Assembly: GCA_050743205.1 (NCBI GenBank) | Contig: JBOGEA010000001.1 | Coordinates: forward strand, 1 to 55,860 | Direction: 5' to 3' | Origin: Egibacteraceae bacterium | GTDB taxonomy: Bacteria > Actinomycetota > Nitriliruptoria > Euzebyales > Egibacteraceae | Length of the DNA stretch: 55,860 nt | Shown here: positions 18-42,790 of the stretch, piece by piece | Layout: the number at the start of each line of letters is the position of its first letter | Numbering within the stretch: position 1 is the stretch's first letter | Program-made: the position numbers and the translations under genes | The notes under the pieces: generated by a model | The model's input: the letters and a program-made list of their open reading frames with translations, nothing else | Told to the model about the DNA's origin: nothing | Database searches by the model: none

Positions 18-51
18 TGCAGGTTTCCTCCGTATTCGGAGGAAACCTGCA
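18..51. repeat. REP-like palindromic hairpin (arms TGCAGGTTTCCTCCG / CGGAGGAAACCTGCA, 4-nt loop)
   Basis: Perfect 15-bp inverted arms read directly. It shares the GGAAAC/GTTTCC core with hairpins at 151-186, 10060-10095, 10124-10155, 13914-13947 and 38741-38773. Confidence 0.8.
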
Positions 52-13730: not shown

Positions 13731-13952
13731 GTGGTGCTTGACGACTGGCGGCAGGGGGACGTCTTCCAGTACGGCGGTCAAGCCTGGGTCGTGCTGTCTC
13801 GTGCCTGCGACATCGTCAAGCCTGTCGATAAGCGCAGCACGGTCATGTGCGCCTCCTCGTCTGCCAGACCCGCGCCAGGCATGAAGGCCGCGCACCGGCC
13901 GCAGGCCGAGAAGTGCAGGATTCCTCCGGATACGGAGGAATCCTGCAACTGA
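13731..13952 (+). CDS. Short ORF, probably the truncated 5' part of a third gene of the 12299 operon
   Basis: It starts 6 nt after the previous stop. LDDWRQGDVFQYGGQAWVVLSRACDIVKP looks protein-like, and then the frame runs into the REP hairpin at 13914-13947. Confidence 0.25.
   Translation: MVLDDWRQGDVFQYGGQAWVVLSRACDIVKPVDKRSTVMCASSSARPAPGMKAAHRPQAEKCRIPPDTEESCN
13914..13947. repeat. REP-like hairpin (TGCAGGATTCCTCCG-GATA-CGGAGGAATCCTGCA)
   Basis: Perfect 15-bp arms, differing from the 18-51 copy at two paired (compensated) positions. Confidence 0.8.
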
Positions 13953-17900: not shown

Positions 17901-19085
17901 CGCCAGCTTGACGTCGGCGGCGTCGAACACCAGCGGTCCCCCGGCCGGCGGCAGCAGCCGCAGCTCGCTGGCGAGCGCGCCGAACAGGGCAGGGGTGGCC
18001 ACCGACAACGGGGACGCCGACGACGCCCCGGAACACAGCCGGGGCAGGGCCGTTCGCAGCGCGCGGGGCAACGGCTGGCCCTTGCCGAGCATCAACTCGT
18101 AGACCTGGGCGCCGAGCCCGATCGCGAACTCGTCGTCTACCGGGTAGCGCATCGCCAGCACGGCGCAGCCCAAGCGGTCGACGAGCGCGGCGGCCAGCGC
18201 GGGCAGCGGCTCCCCCTCGACGGGCGCCGTGTCGTCGCTGCGCACAGGGATGCCGAGCAGGCGCAGATGCTCGGCGGCGGTGGCGGCCGCGGACTCGCAC
18301 GCTGACAGCGTGACCAGCTTGATCTGGCGTCGGGCAGGGTCGAGCAGCTCGACCAGTTCAGTGCTGGAGATCAGGTCGCGACTGCCGTCGGCGGTCTCCA
18401 GCAGCAGCCCGGCGGGCAGCCCGTGGCCGGAGATGTGGACGATGTCCCAGCCCTCGTCCTCCAGCAGCACGTCGTCGAGGCGTTCCCTGGTCACGCCGTA
18501 CTGCAGGACCCGCAGCTCGATCGCTTTGTGGTTGACCTGGGCGATACGGTCCACCAGGCGGGCCAGCTCGTAGCGCTCACGGCGCAGGCTCAGCGCGGCG
18601 GTGTCCACGGGCAGGCTGAACACGGCGAGCATCCGCAGCCGCCCGCCGACCGGCCGCTTCGCCCCGCCGACGGTCCCGCCCATGCCTTGGATGACGAGGC
18701 TGACCTGCCGCAGCGCCAGCGGCCGGCCCTCGACCCAGGCAAGCTCCAACGGCCGGTAGCCCAGCACCGCCGCCTCGGCGGGCAGGCGCACGCGCACCGT
18801 GACCGGCGCTCGCGCCACGATCGCTGGGCCGACCGCGCCGAGCACCTGCTCGCCGATCCAGCGGCCGAGCCATGCCAGGATCTCGGTCTCGCTGTCCCGG
18901 CGGCGGTCCGGCGCGGCGTTCCAGCGCAGGTAGCGGTACAGATCAGCGAACGCCTCATACTCGGCGGCGCTGGTGTCGAGGTGGACGGTATGGTCGGCGA
19001 CGAACGCGCCGCCGGGCTCGGTCAGCCGCCACCGCCACCGCGCCGGCCCCTCGTAGTCACAGACATCGAGATCCACCAGCTCCAC
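14950..19085 (-). CDS. CHAT protease - NB-ARC/STAND P-loop NTPase - TPR protein, copy A (about 1378 aa; one apparent -1 frameshift near 15345-15350)
   Basis: CHAT dyad motifs HISGHG (His about 18437) and LSACES (Cys about 18302). Walker A is GMAGAGKT (17772-17795), Walker B is LIVLDNLE, and a long TPR-like region follows. The GTG start was set by homology with copy B. The C-terminal tail continues in the frame of ORF 14950-15240. Confidence 0.85.
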
Positions 19086-19169
19086 AACCGCCCCCTGCCC
19101 ATCGCCGCCAGCCCCACCCACCGTACTCGAACGATCCACAGATCCACCATGCAGAGGGCGTAGGCTGCG

Positions 19170-19568
19170 TTGGCTGCGATGGGAGGTGACAGGGTGGCGG
19201 CACGCGTGAGGTGGGAGGTCGTCGGAGGGAAAGCGCGCTACAACGGTCGGTGGCTGTCGGAGTGGGTGCCCGACGCGGTCGAGCGGATCGTGGAGGGGTT
19301 CGCGCCGGTCAGGATCGTCCTGTTCGGCTCTGTGGCTCGGGGTGACGACAACGCCGACAGCGACATCGATCTGCTTGTCGTGCTCTCGGAAATCAGGGGC
19401 CGACGCCACGACGCTGCCGTGGACATTCTTCGTGCCCTGCGTGATCTGCCGGCTCCCGTGGACGTCATGGTCACTGACGTGCGGCACCTCGCGGAGGCGG
19501 CGGAGCTGCCTGGCGTGCTTCGGGTGGCGTTGCGGGAGGGCAAGGTGGTCCATGAGCAGGCCGCCTGA
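19170..19568 (+). CDS. Nucleotidyltransferase-domain protein (MNT-type antitoxin)
   Basis: VRIVLFGSVARGDDNADSDIDLLVV is the GS...DxD polymerase-beta-type motif. A shorter GTG start at 19266 is possible. Confidence 0.8.
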   Translation: MAAMGGDRVAARVRWEVVGGKARYNGRWLSEWVPDAVERIVEGFAPVRIVLFGSVARGDDNADSDIDLLVVLSEIRGRRHDAAVDILRALRDLPAPVDVMVTDVRHLAEAAELPGVLRVALREGKVVHEQAA

Positions 19569-20067
19569 GACGCTCGCCGAGCGTGTCGAGCGATGGCTGC
19601 GGCTCGCCCGTGAGGATCTGCTTCTGGCCGAGCACGCGCTCGCGGACCCCGACGTCGTTCGCCGAGGTGCGTGCGTATGGGCACAGCAGGCGGCGGAGAA
19701 GGCATTAAAAGCGCTCATCGTGTCAGAAAACACTGATCCGCCCAAAATTCATAATCTGATGCACCTCGAACGGTTGGTCCCGGCGGCTGTCAGCGAGGGA
19801 TTGGCACCGCTCGATCTCGAGGGGCTCACTCGCTGGGCGATCGAAGGCCGGTATCCGGACGATTTCGAGGAAGCCACGACCACCGATGCCGAGACGGCCG
19901 TGGCCACAGCCGCCGCCGTCCTCCTTCTCGCCGAGACGGCCCTCGACCGGGCGCCTTTGGGAGATCGAGCCCAAGAGCCTCAAGTCGATCCCGAACTCGC
20001 GCTTGCGGAACAACAGCCGGACGAGCCTGACCTCGCCCCGACCGACGAGCATGGAGAGCACCGCTGA
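19552..20067 (+). CDS. HEPN-domain protein (partner of MNT)
   Basis: WLRLAREDLLLAEHAL...AQQAAEKALKALIV...KIHNLMHLERL. The ATG at 19552 lies 15 nt before the MNT stop. Confidence 0.75.
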   Translation: MSRPPETLAERVERWLRLAREDLLLAEHALADPDVVRRGACVWAQQAAEKALKALIVSENTDPPKIHNLMHLERLVPAAVSEGLAPLDLEGLTRWAIEGRYPDDFEEATTTDAETAVATAAAVLLLAETALDRAPLGDRAQEPQVDPELALAEQQPDEPDLAPTDEHGEHR

Positions 20068-23000
20068 TTAGTCGAGATCGCGGGACGCCGACGCCGCCTT
20101 TGCGCGTGCGCGCAGGCCAAGCAGCCCGGCGATCATGATCACCGGCAGCGGGTAGACCAGATCGGTGACGATGTCCAGCTCCTCGGCGACCTGTTGACCC
20201 TGGACCTCGCCGAGATCTCCGCACGGTGGGATGACGACCCACCAGCGGTAAACCACCCATGCTGCGGCGCGCGGGTGAAGGTCCGCCCGCGTTCTTCGGA
20301 CAGGATCCGGCGGAGGGTGGCGGCGAGCGGCGGCCCAGTCTTCTTGGGCGGCGAGGTCGGCGAGGACGACCGGCTGTGGATCGGCGGCGGCATGCTGGTC
20401 GCCGCGTGCGGCTGCGACCACCGCGTCGACCGGGGGCGTGAACTCTTCGGGCACGCCCGATGGGAGCTGTTCGAGTTCGGCGCGGCCGGCCAGCACGTCC
20501 AGGGTGCGCTGCACGACCGCGGTGTCGATTGGGTCCAGCCCCTCGAGGAGGTCCTGCCCCGCGAGGATGTCCTGGCCGCGCTCGCTGCTCAGGATGCGCC
20601 GCAGCCGCTCGACCAGGACCGCACAGTCGTCGTGCTGCGCTGCTGCGCCCTTGTGCGGATGTCGTCAGTGGCGTTGGCGTGCGAGGCGTAGCACTTCGGC
20701 GAGCGCCGCGTCGCCGTCGGGGGCCCGCCTGGGCAGGCGCTCGAAGAGCTGGGCGAGCTGCACGCCCTCCACCCGACCCACGAGGCCACACAGCACGGCG
20801 AACGAGGCCGGGAGCGGAGGGGTTGTAATGAAGCTGGCTAGGTCGCGGGCGAGCCGGTCGAGCGTCAAGGCCAAGAGCCCCGCGCCGGTCTGATATTGGA
20901 TGATGGCAGAGGCCAGCCGGTGGGCCAGCGCGACCGCCGGATCGGCGTCAGCCCCGCGCAGATAGCTTGCCAGGTTCTGGTGGATGCCCGCAATGGGCTC
21001 AGGGTCTGTGGCGGCGTACGCGTAGCGCAGCGCGTCCTGCTGAAGTCTGACGGCGGCATCGCGGTGGCCGAGTCTGTCCTCAACGTCGGCCAGGGCGCCG
21101 ACCACCTGGCCGTGCGAGCCGATGGCCTTCTCCTGCTCGAACACGGCTCGGCAATCCAGCAGCAGCTTTTTAGCGTCGTTGATGCGACCAAGGCGCAGCA
21201 GCGGACCATAGTCATTGAACTCTATGTCGGCGAGTTCGAGGGGGGGTGCGCTGCGCCGGCGTGTGGACTTGATCAGCGCGGCGTTGAGGGCCAGCGCCTC
21301 TTCCCATCGTTCCTGGCCGGCAGCTGCAGAGCGGCCGACGCTCAGGATGGCCTCACGTACGTTCCACGGATTGACTGGATCGTTCGCTTCGCGCTGCTGG
21401 GGCAGAGCAGCCATGGTTTCCCAGAGTTTCTGGACTGAGGAGAGGACCTCTTCGCTGCGACCCTGCCGGACTAAGATCTGTAGCTGCCGGGCCTCGTCAG
21501 CTAGCTGGGTCCACGGTCCCAAGCCGGCGCGCCGGGTGTAGCCGCTCTTCTGCTCGACCATCGCCAGCGCCTCGTCCAACCGGCCTGTGTCTCGCAGCAG
21601 GTTGATCAGATTCCCCGCAAGGATCGTTGCTGTGGCAAAACGGTCGCGTGCGACTGCCTCGGCGAGCAGTTCACGGAGGCGCGTCTCGGCCTCGGCCGGC
21701 TGCACGAGCGACAGCGCTCGGGCAAGCAAGGCGGCGTAGTCGAGTTCGTCCTCGGTGCCTGTGGTGGCTTCGACGACGCGGCGCAGGAGCGGCAGCACGG
21801 CGGCGACCGTGCCCGGCGAATGGTCGCGATTCAGCACGGTCTCGAGCACCCAGGCCGCAGTGTCCCATTCGCCCAGGCGGAGCAGGTAGGAGGCGACGCT
21901 GCGGCCGGACTGCCGCACCATCCAGCCCTGCGCATGCGTCTCCTTGGCCAGCCTCTGACCGAAACCAGACTTCCAAAAGGCGGCCAGCCTGGTGTCGACT
22001 GCGGCCTGGAAGTCCGGGTCGGCTGCGGCCTGCCCGGCCTCGGCCACACCCGGATGCAGGTGGTAGATGTCTTGTCGGCGGTCCTGGTCGTCGCCGGGCT
22101 CGACCACGACCAGCCCCTGACCGACCAGCGAGACGAGGGTGGCCTGCAAGTCGGGCGGGTCACCGGGCCGTTCCAGCCGCTCCCACAGGTCGGCCCAGTT
22201 CGCCTCAACGATCCAGCCGCGCCGGTCGTGCTCCTCCAGGGCGCACAGGAAGTGGAACAGGATCCGCGCTGGCTCGGGCAGCGCGCCGGTCGCCGCGCGG
22301 GTCCACCCCGACAGCACCCGCACGAAGTCGTCGTCGGTAGCCGCCGATTCGCCGTGGTCGAAGAACGTCTGCAGCCGGGTGCTGCCAGCGAGCCAGGCCT
22401 GGTCGGCTTCGTCCAAGCGGGCCGCCAGGGCGGTGTGGTCGGTGGCTTGGCCGTCGGCCAGCTCGATGAGCTTGGGATGACCCTGGACCACCGCGAGCGT
22501 GCGGGACAGCAGCGCCCTCCCGGTGTCGCTGTCGAACAGGGCGCGCAGGTTGGGCAGCTCGCGGGCGACCAGCATCGCCTCCTCCAGCGACAGCGCATGG
22601 ATCGCCTCGACCCGCGCTCGGGGATCCAGCATTGCGGGCCGCCGCCGCGACGTCAGGACCACCCGAGACAGCCGTCGTGGCTGACCAGCGCGTTGACGAC
22701 CAGCTCCCAGCGTGGGTCGCGCCAGTCGCCCTGCTCGGTCAGCAGCGACTCCAGGTTGTCCAACACGATCAGGACCCGGTTGGTCTCCAGCAGCTGGGTC
22801 AGCCTGGGCAGGAACGCTTGCAGCGCGGCGATGTCGTCCACCGCCTGCACCATTGCCAGGCCGGGGAGCTGGCGCTCCAGGTCCAGTGCCAGGTTGGTCA
22901 GGGCGGCGGTGATGTCGTGGCCCTCGTCGGGCGCCTTGTGCCACACCAGGTGGGTGAAGGTCTGCTCGTGGCCGTAGGCCAGCTCCAACGCGCAGGCCGT

Positions 23001-24312
23001 CTTGCCCGCCCCGGCCATGGCCATGGAACAGCACCGCGCTGTGCTCGTTGTCCGGGGCGAGTGCGGCGGTGGCCCGGGCCATCGGGCCGACCCGGCCCAC
23101 GAACCGGACCGGCTGGGGCGGGAAGTCCGCCAGCTTGACGTTGGCGACGTCGAACACCAGCGGCCCCCCGGCCGGCGGCAGCAGCCGCAGCTGGTCGGCC
23201 AACGGGCCGAACAGGGCCGGGGTGGCCACCGACAGCGGCGACGTCGACGACGCTCCGGTGCACAGCCGGGGCAGTGCCGTTCGCAGCGCGCGGGGCAAGG
23301 GGTGGCCCTTGCCGAGCATCAGCTCGTAGACCTGGGCGCCGAGGGTGATCGCGAACTCATCGTCGACCGGGTAGCGCATCGCCAGCACGGCGCAGCCCAA
23401 CCGGTCGACGAGCGCAGCGGCCAGCGCGGGCAGCGGCTCCCCTCGACGGGGCGCCGTGTCGTCGCTGCGCACAGGGATGCCGAGCAGGCGCAGATGCTCG
23501 GCGGCGGTGGCAGCCGCAGACTCGCACGCTGACAGCGTGACCAGCTTGATCTGGGCTCGGGCAGGGTCGAGCAGGTCGACCAGCTCAGTGCTGGAGATCA
23601 GGTCGCGGCTGCCGTCAGCGGTCTCCAGCAGCAGCCCGGCGGGCAGCCCGTGGCCGGAGATGTGCACGACGTCCCAGCCGTCGTCCTCCAACAGCACGTC
23701 GTCGAGCCGTTCCCTGGTCACGCCGTACTGCAGGACCCGCAGCTCGATCGTTTTGTGGTTGACCTGAGCGATACGGTCCACCAGGCGGGCCAGCTCGTAG
23801 CGCTCACGGCGCAGGCTCAGCGCGGCGGCGTCCACGGGCAGGCTGAACACGGCCAGCATCCGCAGCCGCTCGCCGACCGGCCGCTTCCCGCCACCCCCAG
23901 CGCCGCCCGCACCTTGGATGACGAGGCTGACCTGCTGCAAGGCCAGCGGCCGGCCGTCCACCCAGGCAAGCTCCAGCGGCCGGCAGCCGAGCGCCGCGGC
24001 CTCGGCGGGCAGGCGCACCCGCACCGTGACCGGCGCTCGCGCCACGATCGCCGGGCCGACCTTGCTGAGCACCTCCTCGCCGATCCAGCGGCCGAGCCAC
24101 GCCAGGATCTCGGTCTCGCTGTCCCGCCGGCGGTCCGGCGCGGCATTCCAGCGCAGATAGCGGTACAGATCAGCGAACGCCTCATACTCGGCGGTGCGCT
24201 CGTCGAGGCAGACGGTGTGGTCGGCGACGAACGCGCCGCCGGGCTCGGTCAGCCGCCACCGCCACCGCGTCTGGCCCGTGTAGTCAAGGACGTCGAGGTC
24301 CACCAGCTCCAC
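20068..24312 (-). pseudogene. CHAT - NB-ARC - TPR paralogue, copy B (decaying: +1/-1 indel pair, in-frame stop, degraded tail)
   Basis: It aligns with copy A from 50 nt upstream of the GTG (24312). There is an extra base near 23020 and a missing base near 22672. The P-loop region is readable only in ORF 22653-23024. A TGA occurs at 20665-20667, and homology continues to about 20270. Confidence 0.8.
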
Positions 24313-24378
24313 AACCGCCCCTGCCCGTCGCAGCCAGTGTCACCCACCGTACTGCCTTGGTTTGGCAGGGGAGGGGGC

Positions 24379-24933
24379 TCAGGCGAGCAGGGTGGAGATC
24401 GGCAGAGCGAAGCCGGGCAGCAGTGGGGAGGTCAACGTTTCGCCCTCGCCCACGATGATGGGCTCGGGGTAGCGCCAGCCGGTGAGGCGATGGACGAGCA
24501 CGGCGCGCCGCTTGAGGTCGGTGAACCAGTACTCGGGCACGCCGAAGGCCGCGTAGGCGTCGCGCTTCGGGCCGAGGTCGAACCATCGGTTCGACGGCGA
24601 CGACACCTCGATGACGAGGTCCGGCGGCTCATGCACCTTCTTGCCCTCGAACCACTCGAGATGCTCGGCGAGGACCAACAGCAGGTCGGGCTGGTAGACC
24701 CGCTGCTCGGAGGTGACGACGTCGACCGGCCCGACGAGCACCTCGCCGCCGTGCTCATCAGTCCAGGCCCTTAGTGGGTAGTGGAATTGCCCAATCGCGC
24801 GCTGGTGCCCCACTGCTGGCGAGGGGCTCACGACGAGCACCCCGTCGTGCAGCTCACGGCGGTCGAGTTCGGGAAACTGCTCGTCCAAGTCGCGCCAGGT
24901 GAGGTCCCTCGTCTTGACATCGACCGTCCCCAT
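24379..24933 (-). CDS. Uma2-family (DUF820) endonuclease
   Basis: ELHDGVLVVSPSP..H, YQPDLLLV, PDLVIEVSSPSN, KRDAYAAFGVPEYWF form the PD-(D/E)xK pattern typical of Uma2. Confidence 0.8.
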   Translation of the reverse strand: MGTVDVKTRDLTWRDLDEQFPELDRRELHDGVLVVSPSPAVGHQRAIGQFHYPLRAWTDEHGGEVLVGPVDVVTSEQRVYQPDLLLVLAEHLEWFEGKKVHEPPDLVIEVSSPSNRWFDLGPKRDAYAAFGVPEYWFTDLKRRAVLVHRLTGWRYPEPIIVGEGETLTSPLLPGFALPISTLLA

Positions 24934-25039
24934 AGGGTGCCACCTCCATCAGCCATCGCGGGACTTTACAAGGCCAGCCTACGCCGATGCCAGCTGGAGC
25001 GGCGCAGGCGTCGGCGGTGGTGGGGGCGCTGCTATCGCG

Positions 25040-30378: not shown

Positions 30379-30510
30379 TTCATAGCCTCCTGGGCTGGTG
30401 TGCGGATCAAGCGTTTGTGCGGGCACGATGCCTGCATTCTTGTCCGTGCTGCCACTGTGGATTGCGCCGCTTAGCGTTTGCTTGACGACCGCTGTACAGC
30501 GGGAAGCCAG
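30379..30510 (-). promoter_or_regulatory. Conserved leader L1 with perfect 12-bp palindrome CGCTGTACAGCG (30490-30501)
   Basis: About 130 nt are alignable with 32305-32440, with identical blocks including CTTGACGACCGCTGTACAGCG and the RBS-ATG context GGCTATGAAATGCC. Confidence 0.6.
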
Positions 30511-30557
30511 CGCAGCGATAGGGCGCGGCCCGAATTTGACGTCTCCGGCCCCTCGTG

Positions 30558-30716
30558 AAGTGGCGGATGCCCGCCTTGGCTGCCGGTGAATGGGGGGCGG
30601 GCGGGCTATTGTGACGGCAGTGATCGAAGAGCCCGTCCACGCCTCTCCCCGAGCGCCAGCCGTGGATTCTGGTCGTCGAGGACGACCCGATCGTGGCCGA
30701 AGTCGTCGCCCGGTAC
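30558..30716 (+). pseudogene. Duplicate of the upstream region and first about 35 codons of the OmpR-type regulator gene
   Basis: It aligns with 32827-32986 (...PRILVVEDDPIVAEVVARY). Homology stops abruptly where the transposase remnant begins. Confidence 0.8.
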
Positions 30717-32304: not shown

Positions 32305-32440
32305 TTCATAGCCTTCTTAGTTGGAATGCGGATCGAGTGTTGTGGTGCAGGCAAGACGCCCGCACGCTCGTCCGCACTGCCACTATGGGCTGCGCCGCTT
32401 AATCTTTTCTTGACGACCGCTGTACAGCGAAAAGCCAGCG
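32305..32440 (-). promoter_or_regulatory. Conserved leader L2 with palindrome CGCTGTACAGCG (32418-32429)
   Basis: Paralogue of 30379-30510. It overlaps the 3' end of the NTF2-like ORF. Confidence 0.6.
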
Positions 32441-32811
32441 GAGCCAACCCTGGAGATCCCCATCATGGCAGCGGATCTGTGCCGCAAGGCCGTCGCGGAG
32501 CACCATGATCTCGGCGGCCTTCTGACCACGGACGCTCGTGTAGACAATCGTGACGCTGTCGATCCCGGGGAGCACGCCATGCAAGTCGAAGCGCAGGTCA
32601 GGAAACGAACGCAGCCCGACAGCGAAATAGCGGTGGCGGAGCGTCTCGACGCCGCGAAGGGTTCCCGACGGGTCAAAGCCAAGCGCTGCTCCATAGGGCG
32701 GCCTGAACTCGACGTCCTGGTCATAGTGCCGCAGGACCATGTCCAAATCATGGGCGTTCCAGGCCTGGACCCACTGTGAGTCGAACGCAAGCGTTGGTCT
32801 TTGTCAATCAC
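32399..32811 (-). pseudogene. SnoaL/NTF2-like protein, probable frameshift near the 5' end
   Basis: QWVQAWNAHDLDMVLRHYDQDVEF...SVTIVYTSVRGQKAAEIMVLRDG is NTF2-like. The only in-frame start is TTG 32746, inside helix 1. A GTG at 32811 (VIDKDQ) lies in another frame. Confidence 0.45.
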
Positions 32812-32887
32812 CTCTGGCTCCTGGTCAAGTGGCGGATGCCCGCCTTGGCTGCGGGTGAATGGGGGGCGGGCGGCTATTGTGACGGGT

Positions 32888-33622
32888 GTGATCGAAGAGC
32901 CCGTCCACACGCCTCTCCCAGAGCGGCAGCCGCGGATTCTGGTCGTCGAGGACGACCCGACCGTGGCCGAGGTCGTCGCCCGGTACCTGGAGCGCGACGG
33001 CTGCCGCATCGAGGTCGTCACCGACGGCAGGGTCGCCCTCGCCAGATTGGAGGCCGCGCCCCCCGACCTCGTCATCCTCGACGTCATGCTGCCCGGTTTG
33101 GACGGGTTCGAGGTCTGCAGGCGCCTGCGCGAGCACAGCCGGATCCCGGTGATCATGCTCACCGCCCGGGCTGAGGCGGTCGAGCGCATCAACGGTCTGG
33201 AGCTGGGCGCGGACGACTACGTGGTCAAGCCGTTCTCGCCGCGCGAGCTGGCCGCGCGGGTGAAAGCGGTGCTCCGTCGGGCGCAGATGGCGCGGGACGG
33301 CTCCGTGTCGGGGCCGCAGCCGTACCGGCCCAGGACGTTTCTGGGCATGGAGTTGGACGAGCGCTCCCGCCAGGTCCGAATCGACGGCCAGCCGGTCTCG
33401 CTGACGGTGCGGGAGTTCGACCTGCTCGCCTTCTTCATACGGCATCCCGGGGAGGTGTTCCGGCGGGAGGCGCTGCTCGACCGGGTCTGGGGCTATACGT
33501 TCGGCGACACCTCGACGGTGACGGTGCACGTGCGCCGCCTGCGCGAGAAGATCGAGCCGGACCCGTCCGCCCCGACTTACGTGCAGACCGTGTGGGGCGT
33601 CGGGTACCGGTTCGGCGAGTGA
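32888..33622 (+). CDS. OmpR/PhoB-family response regulator
   Basis: RILVVEDDPTVAEVV...DLVILDVMLPGLDGFEV...ADDYVVKPFSPRELAARV, with a winged-helix C-terminus YVQTVWGVGYRF. The GTG start is uncertain (32879 or 32888). Confidence 0.9.
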   Translation: MIEEPVHTPLPERQPRILVVEDDPTVAEVVARYLERDGCRIEVVTDGRVALARLEAAPPDLVILDVMLPGLDGFEVCRRLREHSRIPVIMLTARAEAVERINGLELGADDYVVKPFSPRELAARVKAVLRRAQMARDGSVSGPQPYRPRTFLGMELDERSRQVRIDGQPVSLTVREFDLLAFFIRHPGEVFRREALLDRVWGYTFGDTSTVTVHVRRLREKIEPDPSAPTYVQTVWGVGYRFGE

Positions 33623-35123: not shown

Positions 35124-35470
35124 CTGCCGTCAACCGGCGCGCCATCGCCCCTCCCGTCCATGGCTCGTCGGGCCGGGGCGAAGCCCCGCTAGTCGGTGCC
35201 AGCCAGTGTGCCGTGGCGAACCAGGGACACCCCGGCGTATGGGCACGCCGCTGCCGGTGATGCGGAGCACGCGCATGGTGAAGGGAAACGCTCGCGGCAT
35301 CGGCGCGCCAGGCCGAGATCCGTCACGAGCAGCACCACGAAACTCGCCGACGACATGTCTTGACAGCCAACTGGCTTCCCAGAGCCTGCACGCATGCGGA
35401 TCCCGATGGCCGTCAGCAGACGCCTGACCAGCGCGTATGCGCTCGTGCGGAGCGGGGCAGACGGCCCGGA

Positions 35471-35519
35471 GGTGACTGAAAATCACGAGGTCGGCGGTTC
35501 GACCCCGCCCTTGGCCACC
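35471..35519 (+). other. tRNA-Phe(GAA) 3'-half fragment (anticodon arm to acceptor 3' strand): att-like remnant
   Basis: GTGA-CTGAAAA-TCAC, GAGGTC, GGCGG-TTCGACC-CCGCC, CTTGGCC-A-CC. No matching 5' acceptor strand (GGCCAAG) or canonical D-arm position lies upstream. Confidence 0.6.
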
Positions 35520-35699: not shown

Positions 35700-36548
35700 T
35701 CATGCGCGGCCAAGCGCCAGGCGGCGGTTGTCGATCAGGCGGGTCGTGCCCACGAATGCGGCGACGACCGCCTGGGCTGGGCGCTCCACGACGCCTCTCA
35801 GTGGCTGCAGGGTCTCGGGGTCGACGATGTCCGCGTAGTCGAGGCGGACACCGGGCGCGGCCTCGATTCTGCGTCGCAGCAGGTCACGAGTCCGGTCGGC
35901 GTCGCCGTTCCAGGTCGCGGCCGCCTCGCGCAGCGCGACGGACAGGACCAGCGCCTGGGTCCGCTGCCGCGCGGCGAGGTAGGCGTTGCGGCTGGACAGC
36001 GCGAGGCCGTCGGGGTTGCGCGCCGTCGGGCAGCCGACGATCCGCACGGGCAGGTCGAGGTCGCGGACCATCGTCTTGATCACCACGAGCTGCTGGAAGT
36101 CCTTCTCGCCGAAGTAGGCGAGGTCGGGCTGGACGACGCCCAGCAGCTTGGCCACGATGGTCGTGACGCCGTCGAAGTGGGTCGGTCGGCTGGCGCCCTC
36201 CAAGCCGGTGGTGAGGTCACGCACGGTCACGGTCGTGCGGCGGGTGGGCGGGGTGAACTGTGACGGCTCCGGTGCGAACACGAGGTCGACGCCCAGGGGG
36301 GTGAGCAGGTCCAGGTCACGCTGGAGGTCACGCGGGTAGGCGTCGAGGTCCTCCGTCGGGGCGAACTGGAGCGGGTTGACGAAGATGCTCACGACGACCG
36401 CGTCGCAGTCGGCCTCAGCGCGCCGGACCAGGGAGAGGTGGCCCTCGTGCAGCGCGCCCATCGTCGGGACCAGCCCGATGCGGCGGCCGGCGAGGCGGTG
36501 CGGTCGGAGCGCGGCGCGGGTGTCGGGGGCGGTGGTTGTCAGGTCCAT
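35700..36548 (-). CDS. panC: Pantoate--beta-alanine ligase
   Basis: [18 protein letters not shown]...VVSIFVNPLQF...HFDGVTTIVAKLL are canonical PanC motifs. Confidence 0.9.
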   Translation of the reverse strand: MDLTTTAPDTRAALRPHRLAGRRIGLVPTMGALHEGHLSLVRRAEADCDAVVVSIFVNPLQFAPTEDLDAYPRDLQRDLDLLTPLGVDLVFAPEPSQFTPPTRRTTVTVRDLTTGLEGASRPTHFDGVTTIVAKLLGVVQPDLAYFGEKDFQQLVVIKTMVRDLDLPVRIVGCPTARNPDGLALSSRNAYLAARQRTQALVLSVALREAAATWNGDADRTRDLLRRRIEAAPGVRLDYADIVDPETLQPLRGVVERPAQAVVAAFVGTTRLIDNRRLALGRA

Positions 36549-37402
36549 GGCTCCAGCGCCTTGGCGACCGCCTCGACCGCCTCGTCGGCCAGGCCGGCGC
36601 GCCGGGCGTAGCGCAGGGCGAGGCTGCCCAGCGCCACGTACGCGTCGACGGCCTCGGGCATGACCGCCCGCAGCTCCCGCAGATGCCTGGCCACTGTCCC
36701 CGCGTCACCCCTGCGGACGGGGCCGGTCAGGGCCCCGGCGCCGCGCTCGGCGGCATTGCGGGCCGAGGCGGTGGCGAGCGGGCCGAGGAACGCGCTGGGG
36801 TCGGGGATGCCGGCCCCCAGCAGGAGGTCGCGCGCCAGTGTCACCACCGTCGCCGTCGCGTTCGATCCCACCACCAGGCCGGCGTGGTACAGCGTGCGCG
36901 CGTGGGCGGGCACGGTGACGGGGTTTCCCCGCAGGTCGGCGACGAGCCCGCACGCCCAGACGAGGTCCTCGTCGCGGTCGGCGGTCACCGCCCACGACGC
37001 GCCCGGCAGCCGCTCCAGGCCCCGATCCGGGTCCGGGAACGTCATCGCCGGGTGGCAGGCCGCCACCCGCGCGCCGGCCAGCCCGGCCGGCCGCAGCGTC
37101 TCGGTGCCGTACCCGCCGCTCGTGTGCACCCACCGGCTGGAGGAGGCAACGCCGTCGGCCTTGGCGACCTCCCGGACCGCGGCTGCCAGGGTGTCGTCGG
37201 GCACGCAGACCAGGACCAGCTCCGCGTCCACGGCCACTCTGGCAAGCGGGCGGACCTCGACGCCCGGCAACCGCGCGGCGAACGCCGCCAGCGCGGCCTG
37301 CCCGCGTCCGGCTACCGCGACGATCTGGTAGGCCGGCCGCGGCAGCCCCATCGCCAGCGCCGTCCCCACCCGGCCAGGACCGATGACCGCCACCCGGGTC
37401 AT
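36539..37402 (-). CDS. Rossmann-like / DUF2520 domain protein (ketopantoate-reductase-like)
   Basis: MTRVAVIGPGRVGTALA dinucleotide fold and C-terminal GPVRRGD. It overlaps the panC start by 10 nt. Confidence 0.8.
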   Translation of the reverse strand: MTRVAVIGPGRVGTALAMGLPRPAYQIVAVAGRGQAALAAFAARLPGVEVRPLARVAVDAELVLVCVPDDTLAAAVREVAKADGVASSSRWVHTSGGYGTETLRPAGLAGARVAACHPAMTFPDPDRGLERLPGASWAVTADRDEDLVWACGLVADLRGNPVTVPAHARTLYHAGLVVGSNATATVVTLARDLLLGAGIPDPSAFLGPLATASARNAAERGAGALTGPVRRGDAGTVARHLRELRAVMPEAVDAYVALGSLALRYARRAGLADEAVEAVAKALEPWT

Positions 37403-37755
37403 GCCCGCGGCCCTCTTCCGCGCCGTTGTGCGGGGGCGGTGGTCACCGGGGGCTCCGCGGGTCGCCCGCGATGTGACGCGCGGGGGCACGCACCTGCGTC
37501 CGTGACCGGGGTCCCGTTCCGCCGTTGTGCGGGGGCGGTGGTCACCGGGGGCTCCGCGGGTCGCCCGCGATGTGACGCGCGGGGGCGCGCACCTGCGTCC
37601 GTGACCGGGGTCCCGTTCCGCCGTTGTGCGGGGGCGGCGGTCACCGGGGGCTCCGCGGGTCGCCCGCGATGTGACGCGCGGGGGCGCGCACCTGCGTCCG
37701 TGACCGGGGTCCCGTTCCGCCGTCGTGCGGGGGCGGTGGTCACCGGGGGCTTCAC
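37399..37755 (-). CDS. Repeat-encoded 118-codon coupling ORF (GTGA overlap with the folK stop, ATGA overlap with the downstream start)
   Basis: GTG 37755-37753 overlaps TGA 37754-37752. TGA 37401-37399 overlaps ATG 37402-37400. The frame is open throughout the array. Whether it is translated is unknown. Confidence 0.3.
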   Translation of the reverse strand: MKPPVTTAPARRRNGTPVTDAGARPRASHRGRPAEPPVTAAPAQRRNGTPVTDAGARPRASHRGRPAEPPVTTAPAQRRNGTPVTDAGACPRASHRGRPAEPPVTTAPAQRRGRGPRA

Positions 37756-37799
37756 GGGTAGCCCGCGCTGTGACGCGCGGGGGCACGCACCTGCGTCCC
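37417..37799. repeat. Tandem repeat, 99-bp unit x about 3.9
   Basis: The anchor GTTGTG/GTCGTG occurs at 37425, 37524, 37623 and 37722. Units are nearly identical, and the folK-proximal unit is the most diverged. Confidence 0.95.
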
Positions 37800-38330
37800 G
37801 ATCGCGGTGATGCCGTCGATCGGCGCGAGCCGGGCGAGCATGGTGGCGAGCGAGGTGCCGTCGGGCAGCGTGGCGCCCGGCGCGACCTCGACCAGCGGCA
37901 CCAGGGCAAACGCCCGCTCCGCCAGGCGTGGATGCGGGATCTGCAGCGAGCGGGTCGCCACGACCCGGCCATGCCACAGCAGGATGTCGACGTCGATGGT
38001 CCGCGGCCCCCACCGCACCGCTTCGGTCGGGGACTCCTCGGATCCCTGGCGCACCCGCCCCAGTCGCTGCTCGACCTCGTGGCACAGCCGCAGAAGCCGC
38101 CGGGGCGACCGCCGCGTCCGTACCCTGACGGCGATGTTCAGGAACGGCCCCTGCGCTGGGCCGCCGACCGGCTCGGTCTCATACACCGTGGAGACCTGGT
38201 CCACACACGCTTTTGGGTCGGCATCGAGCAGATCGACGGCTCGCTGGAGGAAGTCGAGCCGGTCCCCAACGTTGCTGCCCAACCCGAGAAACGCGATCTC
38301 GTCGCGCAGCGGGGGCAGGACCGCGCTCAC
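37752..38330 (-). CDS. folK: 2-amino-4-hydroxy-6-hydroxymethyldihydropteridine diphosphokinase
   Basis: AFLGLGSNVGDR...VSTVYETEPVG...GPRTIDVDILL...IPHPRLAERAF are canonical HPPK motifs. Confidence 0.9.
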   Translation of the reverse strand: MSAVLPPLRDEIAFLGLGSNVGDRLDFLQRAVDLLDADPKACVDQVSTVYETEPVGGPAQGPFLNIAVRVRTRRSPRRLLRLCHEVEQRLGRVRQGSEESPTEAVRWGPRTIDVDILLWHGRVVATRSLQIPHPRLAERAFALVPLVEVAPGATLPDGTSLATMLARLAPIDGITAIGTQVRAPARHSAGYP

Positions 38331-38689
38331 ACGCCGTCCCCGCGGCGGACGACCACGGCCACCTCGTCCAGGTCCACGCTCACCGGCGCATCGGGTTTCG
38401 CCACCCGGACCTCGACGGTCCGCACCCGCCCGTCCTCAAGCGCCACGTCGGCCAGGTGTCCGGCGAGCGCCTCGATCAGATCGAAACGCGTCCTGCCCAC
38501 AGCCTCCGCCAGCCGTTGGGCGAGCAGGCCGTAGTCGATGGTGTCTTTGAGCGCGTCGCTGGCCGCCGCGCCGGACAGATCCACGTCCAGCGCCACGTCC
38601 ACGACGAATAGCTGCCCCTCCCGCCGTTCCCGCTCCAACACCCCATGCCGCCCGAACACGCGCAGCCCCCTGATCTCGATCCTGTCCAC
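38327..38689 (-). CDS. folB: Dihydroneopterin aldolase
   Basis: MDRIEIRGLRVFGRHGVLERERREGQLFVVDVAL...TIDYG. There is a 4-nt overlap with folK. Confidence 0.9.
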   Translation of the reverse strand: MDRIEIRGLRVFGRHGVLERERREGQLFVVDVALDVDLSGAAASDALKDTIDYGLLAQRLAEAVGRTRFDLIEALAGHLADVALEDGRVRTVEVRVAKPDAPVSVDLDEVAVVVRRGDGV

Positions 38690-38730
38690 AGTTGACGAGG
38701 ATACGCGGGCCCTCCCGAACAGAGCGCCGC

Positions 38731-38826
38731 CGCGTCAGCTACGGGTTTCCGTCAGATCCGACGGAAACCTGTGGTCGAGCCGCCGCCTCGCCGCGTTAGC
38801 TGCGGGTTTCCGTCAGATCCGATCTA
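38731..38826. repeat. Composite REP-like element (hairpin 38741-38773 + spacer + half-site), inverted copy of 103-195
   Basis: Its reverse complement aligns with 103-195, and the last about 45 nt are almost identical (TTTCCGTCGGATCTGACGGAAA.CCGTAGCTGACGC). Confidence 0.8.
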
Positions 38827-39129
38827 CCCCTATTAGCTGCAGTCGAGCCGCCGACCGGCGACACCGCACCGATTGTCGCACCGAGTCCGGGGATCAGAGG
38901 CCGGGCGGGTCGTCGCGTGGCGAGTACTGGAGGGCCTATGCCCAGGACATCGAGCTGCTTGTCGAGGCGGTCAACAGCGCGAGCCCGACCTCGTGCCGCC
39001 AGGTGGATCAAGCCGCACGAACCGCCAGGTCACGCGCCTGCTCGGACGGGATGCTGTGTTCTCCCGCCGTGGAATTGACGTTAGGCTTTTCCCACGGTGC
39101 CTGGAGCGTGAGGCAGGAGCGGGAGACTC

Positions 39130-40914
39130 ATGGCAGATCGCGCCAAGACTGCTGGCCGTGGAGCCGGCTTGGTCGCTGAGGAGCCCACGGACCGGCTCAA
39201 GGGACGTGGGTTGGCCGCTGGCGGGCTGCTGCGGAGGGTGATCAGGGGGCAGTGGCGCCGTGTTGCGGTGGCCTTGGTGTTCGCGATGCTGCATCAGGCG
39301 GCGGAGGCGGGGGTGCCGGTGATGGTCGGGGTGGTGATCGGCCGGGCTGTGGCCACCGGCGACCTGGGGTCTTTGGTGTGGGGGATCATCGGTCTGACCG
39401 TGCTGTTCGCCGGGCTGTCGGGGTCGTGGCTGATGGCGGCCCGCATGTACTTCTGGGGGCTGCTGGGCGCGGCCCACGATGTGCGGATGGCGGTGACGCG
39501 GCGGGTTCTGGATCCGGGTGGCGGTGCCGGCGCCGCGCTGCCCGGCGCGCTGCTGAGCACGGCGACCGCCGACGCCAGGCGGGTCGCTGAGGTCCACCAG
39601 GCCGCTGTGTTCGGCGCCGCCGCGGTGGCTGCGCTGGGGGTGGCGGCGGGGGCGCTGCTGAGCGTCTCGGTGGTGTTGGGCCTGGTGGTGTTGGCGAGCG
39701 TGCCGCTGGTGCTGGCGGCGGTCCAGTTGGCGGCCAAGGGGTTGGAGCGGCGCAGCGCCGCGGAGCAGGCAGCCGCCGCACAGGCTGCGGCGGTGGCGAC
39801 GGATCTCGTGACGGGGCTGCGGGTGCTCAAAGGCCTGGGCGCGGAGGAGGCGGCCGCGGCGCGGTACCGGCAGGCCAGCCGGTCCTCGCTGGCGAGCACG
39901 TTGCGCGCGGTCGGAATGCAGGCCGGTTTGGGCGGGTTCACGGTCGCGCTGACCGGTGTGGTCTTGGCGGTCGTGGCCTGGGTCGGGGGACGGCTGGCGG
40001 TGCAGGGGTCGATCAGCGTGGCGGGGCTGGTGGCGGCGGTGGGGTTGACGCAGTTCCTGGTCGGGCCGTTCTCCTTTTTGTCGTCGTTGGCGGGCGACCT
40101 GGCCCGGGCGCGGGCGTCGGCTGGACGGGTGGCCGAGCTGCTGTCCACGCCCCCGGCGGTGACCGACGGCGGGACGGCGCTGGCGCGGCCGGTGCGGGGT
40201 GCGCTGGCGCTGCGCGGCGTCGCCCACGCGGGGCTGCGGTCGCTTGACCTGCGGGTCGAACCGGGTGAGCTGGTCGGCGTGGTGGCGCCCGACCCCGCCG
40301 ACGCCGCCGCGCTGCTGGCCTGCCTGGGCCGAACGGTGGATCCGCGGGCGGGTGTCGTCGAGGTCGACGGCGTACCGCTGGCTGCGCTGAATCTCGACGA
40401 CGTGTTGGCGGCGGTGCTGGTCGCCGCGCACGACGCGCGGTTGTTCGACGGCACGCTGGCCGGCAATGTGGCCGCTGGCGGAGCCGCTGACGGCGCTCGT
40501 GTCGACGCCGCGATGGCCGCGGCGGCCGCCGACGAGGTCGCCAGCAGCCTGCCCGACGGCGCCGGCACGGTCCTGACCGAGCTGGGTCGGTCCCTGTCTG
40601 GGGGACAGCGCCAGCGTGTGGCGCTCGCGCGGGCCCTGACGGTGGATCCGCCGGTGCTCGTGTTGCACGATCCCACCACCGCGGTCGACGCCGCCACCGA
40701 GCATCGCATCGCCGCTGGGTTGCGCGCCGCGCGGGCGGGGCGCGCCACGCTGGTCGTGACCACCAGCCCTGGCCTGCTGGCCGCGGCCGACCGGGTCGTG
40801 CTGCTCAACGGCGGCGAGGTCGCCGCTGAGGGCACCCACGCCGCCCTGCTGCGCGCCGACGGGCGCTACCGGGCGGCGGTGCTGGGTGTGCCCGACAGTG
40901 GGGAGCGGCGGTGA
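39130..40914 (+). CDS. ABC exporter, fused permease/ATPase (subunit 1)
   Basis: Six-TM N-terminal half. The C-terminal NBD carries [15 protein letters not shown] and Walker B VLVLHDPT. Confidence 0.9.
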
Positions 40915-41124
40915 GCGGTGATCGGGCTCTGCTGCCGACCGCGTCCCCGCGCCAGACCCGCCGGGCTGTTCGAGCGCTGCTGCGCCCACCCGGGCGGGGG
41001 CCGCTGGGCGAGCCTGACAGTGGGGAGCGGCGGTGAGCGGTGATCGGGCTCTGCTGCCGACCGCGTCCCCGCGCCAGACCCGCCGGGCTGTTCGAGCGCT
41101 GCTGCGCCCGCGGTGGGGGCCGCT
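40881..41124 (+). repeat. Tandem duplication, 122-bp period, of the ABC1-stop/ABC2-start junction (two diverged copies)
   Basis: The GTGAGCGGTGATCGGGCTCTGCTGCCGACC... block starts at both 40911 and 41033. The copies differ by a few substitutions and a 3-nt indel. Confidence 0.9.
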
Positions 41125-42790
41125 GGCCGTGGCGCTGGCCGTGCTGGTCGCCGCCACCGTCGCCGAGCTCGCCGGCCCCGCCCTGCTCGGCCGGATCGTC
41201 GACGTGGCCGCCGAGGGCAGGCCGGCCGCCGCGATCACCCCGTTGGTCGTCGCCCTGTTCGCGGCGGCGGGGGTCCACGGGCTGCTGACGGCGTTGGGCA
41301 CCGCGCGTGTGGCCCGGCTGGGTGAGCTGGCGCTGGCCGATCTGCGGGAGCGGGTGGTGGACCGGGCGCTGCGGGTGCCGCTCGACGACATCGAGCGGGC
41401 TGGCTCCGGCGACCTGATCGCCCGGGTCAGCGGCGACGTGTCGGTGGTGTCCTACGCGTTCCGGGACGCCATCGCCGGGCTGGTCACCTCGGCGCTCACG
41501 ATCGGGGGAACGGTCGTCGGCTTGGGGGTGCTCGATCCCCGCCTGGCCCTGGCTGGGCTGGTGGCGGCGCCGCTCCAGCTGCTGGCCCTGCGCTGGTACG
41601 TGCCCCGGACGGGCCCGATGTACGCCGCGGAACGGGTCGCCGAGGGTGCGCAGGCTCAAGCGCTGCTCGACAGCATCGGCGGCGCGGCCACGGTGCGGGC
41701 GTTCCGGCTGGGCCCGGCGCACCTGCGGCTGGTCGCCGACCGCTCGCGGGCGGCGATGGACACCTCGTTCCGCGCCATGGTCACGCAGGCGTGGTTCGCT
41801 CACCGTCTCAACCGGGCGGAGCTCGGCGGTCTGGCCGCCATCCTGGTGACCGGGTTCTTCCTGGTGCGGTCCGGCGGGGTCAGTCTGGGCCAGGCGACCG
41901 CCGCCGCGCTGTACTTCCAACGCCTGTTCAGCCCGTTCAATCAGCTGCTGTTCCTGGTCGACGACATCCAGTCCGCGATCGCGGCCCTGGCTCGCCTCGT
42001 CGGCGTCGCGGACTTTCCGATCCCTGCCGAGCCTGCCCGCCCCGCCGCTCCCGCCGACGCTTCGGTCCAGGTCATCGGCCTGCACCACGCCTACGTGCCC
42101 GGCCATGAGGTGCTCGCCAGCGTCGATGTGTCGCTGGCGCCCGGCGAGCGGGTCGCGCTGGTGGGTCCCAGCGGCGCCGGCAAGACCACGCTGGCCAAGC
42201 TGGTGGCCGGCGTGCACCAGCCGACCGCGGGGCAGGTCCGCATCGGCGGGGTGAGCCTGGACCAGCTCGGCCCCGCCGCCGCCCGGCGCGCGGTCGTCCT
42301 GGTGACCCAAGAGGTGCACACCTTCGCCGGTCCACTGGCCGCCGACCTGCGCCTGGCCAGTCCCGACGCCAGCGACGCGGACCTGGCTGAGGCGTTGGAC
42401 CGGGTGGGGGCGCTGGGGTGGGTCCAAGCCCTGCCCGACGGGTTGGCCACCGTGGTCGGTCACGGTGGCCATTACCTGGACGCCGCTCAGGCGCAGCAGT
42501 TGGCGCTGGCCCGTCTCGTGTTAGCTGACCCGCCCGTGGCGATCCTCGACGAGGCCACCGCCGAGGCCGGCAGCGTCGGCGCGCGGATCCTGGAGGCCTC
42601 CGCCGCCCAGGCGCTGAAGGGCCGCACCGCCCTGGTCATCGCCCACCGCCTCACCCAAGCCGCGAACGCCGACCGCGTCGTGGTCCTCGACGCCGGCCGG
42701 GTGGTCGAGGTCGGCACGCACGACCAGCTCGTCGCTGCGGGGGGCACCTACGCCGCGCTGTGGGCCGCCTGGTCCGCCTCCCGTGACTGA
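41033..42790 (+). CDS. ABC exporter, fused permease/ATPase (subunit 2)
   Basis: TM half followed by an NBD with GPSGAGKTT and Walker B VAILDEAT. Confidence 0.9.
   Translation: MSGDRALLPTASPRQTRRAVRALLRPRWGPLAVALAVLVAATVAELAGPALLGRIVDVAAEGRPAAAITPLVVALFAAAGVHGLLTALGTARVARLGELALADLRERVVDRALRVPLDDIERAGSGDLIARVSGDVSVVSYAFRDAIAGLVTSALTIGGTVVGLGVLDPRLALAGLVAAPLQLLALRWYVPRTGPMYAAERVAEGAQAQALLDSIGGAATVRAFRLGPAHLRLVADRSRAAMDTSFRAMVTQAWFAHRLNRAELGGLAAILVTGFFLVRSGGVSLGQATAAALYFQRLFSPFNQLLFLVDDIQSAIAALARLVGVADFPIPAEPARPAAPADASVQVIGLHHAYVPGHEVLASVDVSLAPGERVALVGPSGAGKTTLAKLVAGVHQPTAGQVRIGGVSLDQLGPAAARRAVVLVTQEVHTFAGPLAADLRLASPDASDADLAEALDRVGALGWVQALPDGLATVVGHGGHYLDAAQAQQLALARLVLADPPVAILDEATAEAGSVGARILEASAAQALKGRTALVIAHRLTQAANADRVVVLDAGRVVEVGTHDQLVAAGGTYAALWAAWSASRD

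Follow-up and report, generated by a model that had tools for sequence, protein, structure and literature searches.

How does a tandem repeat come to lie between two operon genes whose stop and start codons directly overlap in most relatives, and how can the operon tolerate it? This question is raised by a 99-bp tandem array that separates folK from a Rossmann-like/DUF2520 gene in a 55,860-nt stretch of DNA of an Egibacteraceae bacterium (GCA_050743205.1, contig JBOGEA010000001.1, positions 1-55,860, forward strand), which was analysed over its full length and is called the window hereafter. The gene order folB-folK-[array]-DUF2520-panC, with all genes on the minus strand, predicts an operon; its folB/folK junction overlaps by 4 nt and its DUF2520/panC junction by 10 nt. 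The synteny folB-folK-DUF2520-panC is kept in the relatives, the closest of which are metagenome-assembled genomes (MAGs) of Egibacteraceae and Euzebyaceae, class Nitriliruptoria. From sequence comparison we conclude that the array is very probably a junction-derived minisatellite, i.e. a variable number tandem repeat (VNTR) that arose by local tandem duplication of the folK/DUF2520 junction, and we lean, with clearly less confidence, to the view that it is tolerated because a passive relay open reading frame (ORF) preserves translational coupling across it.

A first-pass annotation, made from the letters of the sequence, had described a 99-bp tandem array inside the operon, and this is borne out by Tandem Repeats Finder (TRF), by the units being in register, with starts at 37425, 37524, 37623 and 37722, and by the Pfam assignment of the genes. 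Interior units differ by 1-2 nt and the end units are the most diverged. The last 14 folK codons (TQVRAPARHSAGYP, followed by the stop) fall inside the first repeat unit, and this folK-proximal unit indeed reads GTGAAG where the interior units read GCGGAG, as had been noted. The two substitutions yield a new GTGA junction, situated 12 nt upstream of a second GTGA with the frames unchanged. This second GTGA, a putative relic of the ancestral overlap of folK stop and DUF2520 start, lies within CCGGTGACC, aligns with CCGGATGACC, which is the working junction in locus L017 and the folK stop in locus L018, and is present in each unit (also at 37641-37644, 37542-37545 and 37443-37446). At the other end of the array, a unique 18-nt spacer, CGGAAGAGGGCCGCGGGC, leads to the DUF2520 ATG; it contains a Shine-Dalgarno-like GAGG 9 nt upstream of this ATG and is identical in three other assemblies (L001, L004, L005). 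The spacer also holds a 2-nt CG excess, in CAACGGCG[CG]GAAGAGGG, present in all four assemblies, by which the former DUF2520 start frame is led to the TGA of ATGA and not into the DUF2520 body. Between folK and DUF2520 runs the relay ORF of 118 codons, for which the sequence confirms the earlier description of a GTGA overlap with the folK stop and an ATGA overlap with the DUF2520 start, so that the stop/start overlap of a translationally coupled pair is found at both of its ends.

The origin of the unit was traced by comparing it with FolK proteins and junctions of relatives. The FolK relatives closest to the window (81-84% identity) carry an 18-residue tail after a conserved AIG (TQVHAPVRGVAGDPGSAG in P0004 and TQVRTPAPGLATDPGGAG in P0005, each followed by the stop), and the interior units, when read in the folK frame, encode TQVRAPARHIAGDPRSPR and a stop, with the same length and stop position as the native tails and with 11 of the 18 residues identical to the tail of P0004. 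At the nucleotide level, nt 5-80 of the unit align with the single-copy junction of L017 at a local score of 28.5 (shuffles: mean 11.6 +- 1.9, maximum 19) and with L018 at 23.5 (shuffles: 13.5 +- 2.5). The aligned stretch spans the FolK tail, the junction motif CCGG[A/G]TGACC and, behind it, roughly 25 nt that code in L017 for the beginning of a DUF2520 N-terminal extension (MTVPPGATAAV-RVAVVG); the second half of the unit matches this N-terminal extension or leader in L017, L018 and L021. Its derivation from the present DUF2520 5' end was considered as well and rejected, the ungapped identity being at chance level. Each unit thus appears to be a copy of the old junction, in which the 18 codons of the FolK tail and their TGA are joined to the GTG that overlaps it and to the opening codons of the DUF2520 extension, and the relay frame appears to be the old DUF2520 start frame. 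Since the unit matches the uninterrupted junction of relatives, it would have arisen in place by duplication and not by insertion. The end of folK had previously been taken for repeat-derived; the native FolK tails and the junction alignments reverse this order and indicate a repeat built from the native 3' end of folK instead of a folK tail gained from the repeat.

In its architecture the array recalls MIRUs (mycobacterial interspersed repetitive units), which are units of 40-100 bp located inside operons at some 40-50 loci per genome, of which the ORF is coupled to its neighbours at -4 spacing, with an insert thought to disturb expression little, and which bear signs of insertion, namely filled versus empty sites and 4-nt direct repeats suggesting transposition (PMC3184786; PMC12548453). 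For MIRU-VNTRs the reference is Supply et al. 1997, through the summaries given in PMC3184786 and PMC12548453. Like a MIRU, the array has a unit of fitting size (99 bp), stands between co-directional operon genes and possesses an ORF overlapping both flanks; its copy number, a variable feature of MIRUs, may vary too, being 3.8 and 2.8 in two assemblies. An interspersed mobile repeat of this kind, inserted at the DUF2520 start codon and subsequently amplified, would account for the unit size, the intra-operon position and the double overlap (compare PMC3184786; PMC12548453), but is largely refuted and in our estimate extremely improbable in view of the match between the unit and the uninterrupted junctions of L017 and L018. 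Moreover, a 24-mer of the unit had 0 matches in 185,579 species (one genome each) and 0 in the JGI metagenome contigs, three sub-patterns of the unit matched inside the array only in the 55.8-kb window (0 expected by chance), the relay peptide has no homologue, and the other tandem repeat of the window is unrelated in sequence and likewise stems from its own junction. By these searches, which covered the source genome over the window and yielded no copy elsewhere of the unit that the first-pass annotation had likened to a MIRU, the array appears not to be a dispersed or interspersed element. The likeness therefore holds for size, operon position and ORF overlaps and breaks down on interspersion and insertion: the descriptions of MIRUs set apart a unit that is found at one locus and is derived from its own folK 3' end and DUF2520 5' end, and the array works like a MIRU but is not one.

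That other tandem repeat is a duplication of 122 bp, present twice and in register, over the junction of two ATP-binding cassette (ABC) transporter genes. Here too a relay ORF, of 41 codons, has a GTGA overlap with both neighbours, and it is a chimera, its N-terminus being as that of the second ABC protein and its C-terminus as that of the first. This is what geometry predicts for a duplicated -4 overlap with a unit length of 2 modulo 3, where translation from the duplicated downstream start would enter the duplicated upstream tail in that tail's native frame and stop at the real junction. The 99-bp and 122-bp repeats have no common sequence and each appears to derive from its own junction, which argues for local duplication over a repeat family. 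A literature search for junction-straddling duplications returned mitochondrial and eukaryotic papers only.

The array itself is real. Contig CDHSPH010000095.1 (GCA_975253665.1), 99.99% identical to the window over 10.8 kb, codes for the same FolK and DUF2520 proteins, as do short Logan contigs (SRR27067737 and SRR27067739); these Logan contigs end inside the repeat on both sides and bear out its two flanks, the unique 18 nt ahead of the ATG among them. Copy number, which the first-pass annotation had proposed to compare between strains, differs between the two near-identical assemblies, with 3.8 copies in the window versus 2.8 in CDHSPH010000095.1, both counted from the assemblies. The gap between folK and DUF2520 is 250 bp in the latter versus 349 bp in the window, a difference of exactly one unit, and the unit absent from the 2.8-copy allele is the one at 37524, seemingly a hybrid of its two neighbours. 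The difference represents either a true polymorphism or short-read collapse. An assembly artefact in the stronger sense, in which misassembly made the array or its copy number, is very hard to credit: although the short-read Logan contigs break within the repeat and the two assemblies disagree on the number of copies, the independent assembly with its 99.99% identical flanks holds at least 2.8 copies, four other contigs confirm both repeat ends, and the unit-specific single nucleotide polymorphisms lie 48-51 nt apart, so that the 3.8-copy path requires three read-supported linkages.

What, then, does the array encode? Three of the six frames are open through it, including a plus-strand ORF (36536-37810), and openness alone is therefore weak evidence; in dinucleotide shuffles the relay frame is open with a probability of 0.6. 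The frame in phase with DUF2520 is also open and, contrary to the earlier statement that it lacks a start codon, has GTG codons at 37489 and 37786. With frames 0 and 2 both open, two in-frame GTG codons in frame 2 and a relay frame that would run into the DUF2520 frame but for the CG excess, the repeats might be thought to encode a protein, either as a repeat microprotein or as an N-terminal extension of DUF2520 from GTG 37489 or 37786. Such a role is most improbable, as the GC content by codon position is flat in the relay ORF (.81/.80/.77 versus approximately.8/.5/.9 in real genes of the window) and the codon log-likelihood per codon is negative in all three frames of the array (-0.34 to -0.38, versus +0.4 to +0.6 in real genes), on which grounds the array was rejected as a protein gene. 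In addition, a protein search among 5.8 billion proteins gave no homologue of the relay peptide, all relatives start DUF2520 at [M/V](T)RVA(V/I)IG, to which the start in the window, MTRVAVIG, is orthologous, and gene callers put the DUF2520 start at the ATG in other assemblies. A structured cis-regulatory RNA was rejected too: the hairpins described earlier do exist in the unit, but they are no more stable than those of shuffles (folding z -0.07 to +0.71 over three phases of the unit, the antisense unit and the complete 432-nt region), and the array has no Rfam match. Neither did it show a promoter-like or terminator-like site. The gap RNA is C-rich (157 C and 123 G of 349), yet not G-poor, and a Rho site within it is speculative.

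The same junction in relatives bears on whether the relay matters. In about 13 related loci the folK stop and DUF2520 start overlap directly, by 1 or 4 nt, as GTGA, ATGA or TGATG. Three others have gaps of 160-335 nt (L006, L018 and L021, the last being the one close relative obtained from a metagenome locus search with FolK, of which the remaining hits, about 45% identical, were left out), and all three hold an exact bridging ORF, whose ATG overlaps the folK TGA and whose terminal TGA overlaps the start of DUF2520, while their other sense frames hold 1-3 stops. Among the related loci compared there was no gapped one without a bridging ORF. The gaps are filled by palindromic elements resembling repetitive extragenic palindromes (REP-like), unrelated in sequence to the array; those of L006 and L018 share two elements, and the indels between them sum to 51 nt, a multiple of 3. 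This pattern suggests, without being conclusive, that a bridging ORF at the folK-DUF2520 junction is kept by selection.

The opposite explanation, a neutral junk VNTR that is a product of slippage or unequal crossover without any role, with DUF2520 translated solely from its own Shine-Dalgarno site, is possible, though we think it unlikely; equally tentative is its corollary that GC-richness, together with the stop/start overlap inherited in each unit, produced the bridging ORF as a side effect. The open-frame chance of 0.6, the three open frames, the lack of a coding signature, the GAGG 9 nt upstream of the DUF2520 ATG and the 122-bp case, in which the relay ORF follows automatically from geometry, are all in line with neutrality. 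Less easily reconciled with it are the exact bridge kept by each gapped relative, including L021 with an open-frame chance of 0.08 before the correct one of three frames is demanded, the frame-preserving indels of L006 and L018, and the want of a gapped locus lacking a bridge among those compared.

We therefore return to the junction-derived VNTR with a passive relay, for which the following course of events is proposed. FolK translation would end in the first unit. The ribosomes terminating there would start again, either at GTG 37755, which overlaps the stop, or 12 nt further downstream at the relic GTG, and would translate the 118 codons of the relay across the array until they meet the TGA contained in ATGA. 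From this point they would reinitiate on DUF2520, which also carries its own Shine-Dalgarno-like GAGG. A gap translated in this way would keep the coupling and avoid a long untranslated GC-rich spacer, and the relay peptide itself is probably meaningless. Since the unit amounts to 33 codons, gain or loss of a unit leaves the frame and both overlaps unchanged, as in the 2.8-copy allele, of which the relay ORF has 85 codons and ends identical to those of the 118-codon form. Because of this period a change in copy number would be nearly neutral and would buffer expression, not tune it; the tuning of coupling by copy number that had been proposed earlier is not predicted. That translation is the cause of the array's tolerance we infer, beyond the observed anatomy, local origin, lack of a coding signature and comparative pattern, and on whether the relay is functional our judgement is evenly balanced.

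Several points weigh against this reading. Between the pre-ATG spacer and the final 18-20 nt of the unit there is but a weak resemblance (14/20, with a 2-nt indel), which leaves the end points of the first duplication approximate. The 3.8 versus 2.8 copies could stem from assembly collapse. Taken by itself, an open relay frame in the window is no surprise (P about 0.6), the other sense frame and an antisense frame being open as well. DUF2520 has its own Shine-Dalgarno-like site, so that the relay may be dispensable, and the relay GTG is without an evident Shine-Dalgarno sequence. L006 and L018, which share the same two elements and therefore count as one origin, i.e. one ancestral insertion, bring the number of independent gapped lineages down to about three, and for these the joint chance of the bridges, approximately 1e-3 to 1e-2, is an estimate that leans on assumptions. 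Translation of the relay, finally, is a prediction from the sequence. The coordinates of the features are collected in Table 1.

Table 1. Location of the features discussed, in window coordinates unless a locus is named; open-frame chances are those before the correct one of three frames is demanded.
Feature	Location	Strand	Details
Tandem array, 99-bp unit, 3.8 copies	37421-37798	minus	TRF, 96% matches, score 700
Relay ORF, 118 codons	37399-37755	minus	GTG 37755-37753 overlaps folK TGA 37754-37752 (GTGA, 37755-37752); TGA 37401-37399 overlaps DUF2520 ATG 37402-37400 (ATGA, 37402-37399)
New GTGA junction	37752-37755	minus	present folK stop and first possible relay start; GCGGAG to GTGAAG, two substitutions
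Putative relic of ancestral folK-stop/DUF2520-start overlap (GTGA)	37740-37743	minus	within CCGGTGACC, aligns with CCGGATGACC
Unique 18-nt spacer, array to DUF2520 ATG	37403-37420	minus	direct reading
folB	38327-38689	minus	Pfam
folK (HPPK), 192 aa	37752-38330	minus	Pfam 5.5e-37, domain aa 14-151
Rossmann-like/DUF2520 gene, 287 aa	36539-37402	minus	Pfam
panC	35700-36548	minus	Pfam
122-bp x 2 tandem duplication over ABC-transporter gene junction	40869-41112	plus	TRF, units in register
ABC-transporter genes flanking the 122-bp duplication	39130-40914 and 41033-42790	plus	
Relay ORF, 41 codons	40911-41036	plus	GTGA overlap with both ABC genes
REP-like family, copies in the window	18-50, 150-190, 13913-13948, 38738-38772, 38800-38822		
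REP-like family of the window, two copies in the folK-DUF2520 gap	L006 2860-2980; L018 3600-3720		
L006, gap 208 nt			bridging ORF 71 codons; chance of open frame 0.20
L018, gap 160 nt			bridging ORF 54 codons; chance of open frame 0.30
L021, gap about 335 nt			bridging ORF 112 codons; chance of open frame 0.08
Loci with direct overlap	L007-L013, L017, L101/L102, L103, L105, L106, L107, L109		

Some further observations were made along the way. The REP-like family of the window consists of palindromes of about 36 nt, dispersed in intergenic DNA and of the type CTGCAG-(G/C)TTTCC..GGAAA(C/G)-CTGCAG; the palindromes of L021 (CTGCACAGTGCAG and GCCGGTATACCGGC) differ from it. Between folB and the first ABC-transporter gene lies a divergent intergenic stretch of 440 bp (38690-39130) that contains the REP-like palindromes and a direct repeat of 34 nt (38728-38761 and 38789-38822); it is likely the promoter region of both operons, but there was no sigma-70-like match in it. 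In two relatives, DUF2520 and panC are called as a single fused ORF of 576-584 aa (L102, 720-2450; L109, 2046-3549), consistent with a functional link of DUF2520 to pantothenate synthesis. Just downstream of panC, ARAGORN calls a 79-nt tRNA-Phe (GAA) at 35441-35519 on the plus strand; given that Rfam at gathering score has no tRNA match anywhere in the window, the call may be false, or the tRNA degenerate. P0008, a FolK protein from an Egibacteraceae MAG (L106), has an in-frame tandem repeat, REARGRPPHH x 3, in one loop of its HPPK domain, and the FolK of the window has an unrelated insertion, QGSEESPTEAV, at the same loop position (around aa 92-105), by which this loop appears to be another hot spot of length variation. 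Elsewhere in the window, a segment of about 5.2 kb is duplicated in tandem (about 15000-19800 and about 20380-25000, 80-95% identity), apparently as two large paralogous genes next to each other, and direct repeats at 30417-30716 and 32345-32986, about 2.27 kb apart and 81-94% identical, span the start of a coding sequence together with an upstream region, suggesting duplicated regulatory gene cassettes.

Apart from MIRUs, the array can be set beside three known systems. It resembles ordinary VNTRs, which arise by slipped-strand mispairing or unequal recombination, in its head-to-tail units, near-identical interior, diverged edge units and one allele without the hybrid-looking unit; it differs from them in that the duplicated segment straddles a coupled junction, so that each unit brings a stop/start overlap and a coupled ORF runs across. 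Stop/start overlaps support termination-reinitiation (PMC6728339; review PMC12548453), and short ORFs can serve merely to deliver ribosomes (PMC12548453). With such coupling, and with synthetic bicistronic leader ORFs, the array shares the 4-nt overlaps at both ends and an ORF that would merely deliver ribosomes, but it would involve two serial coupling steps via a repetitive ORF of 85-118 codons. With the REP-like elements, or elements like miniature inverted-repeat transposable elements, of L006, L018 and L021 it has in common the folK-DUF2520 junction and an exact bridging ORF; those are dispersed palindromes of about 36 nt, whereas the array is without a palindromic element and is not dispersed, and of the two it is the REP-like insertions of relatives that come nearer to the MIRU idea.

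The array reveals no new mechanism. It indicates instead how duplication of an overlapping stop/start junction can give rise to a MIRU-like architecture with no mobile element involved, an ORF coupled to both neighbours resulting at once or after a small indel. For annotation this is a warning that such ORFs should not be called genes, nor such repeats mobile elements, and the array might be of use as a VNTR typing marker for this uncultured Egibacteraceae lineage. Together, the junction in relatives and the second junction in the window form a small natural experiment, which suggests that expansions are tolerated only if the gap is translated. It is doubtful whether relay ORFs constitute a general selected rule for the expansion of coupled operon junctions in Egibacteraceae, and perhaps in other high-GC actinobacteria. 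If they did, a duplication or palindromic insertion at a stop/start overlap would survive only with an exact bridging ORF, junction minisatellites with periods that are a multiple of 3 would be copy-number-buffered translated spacers, and such loci would provide natural evidence of selection on serial termination-reinitiation or on protection from Rho polarity.

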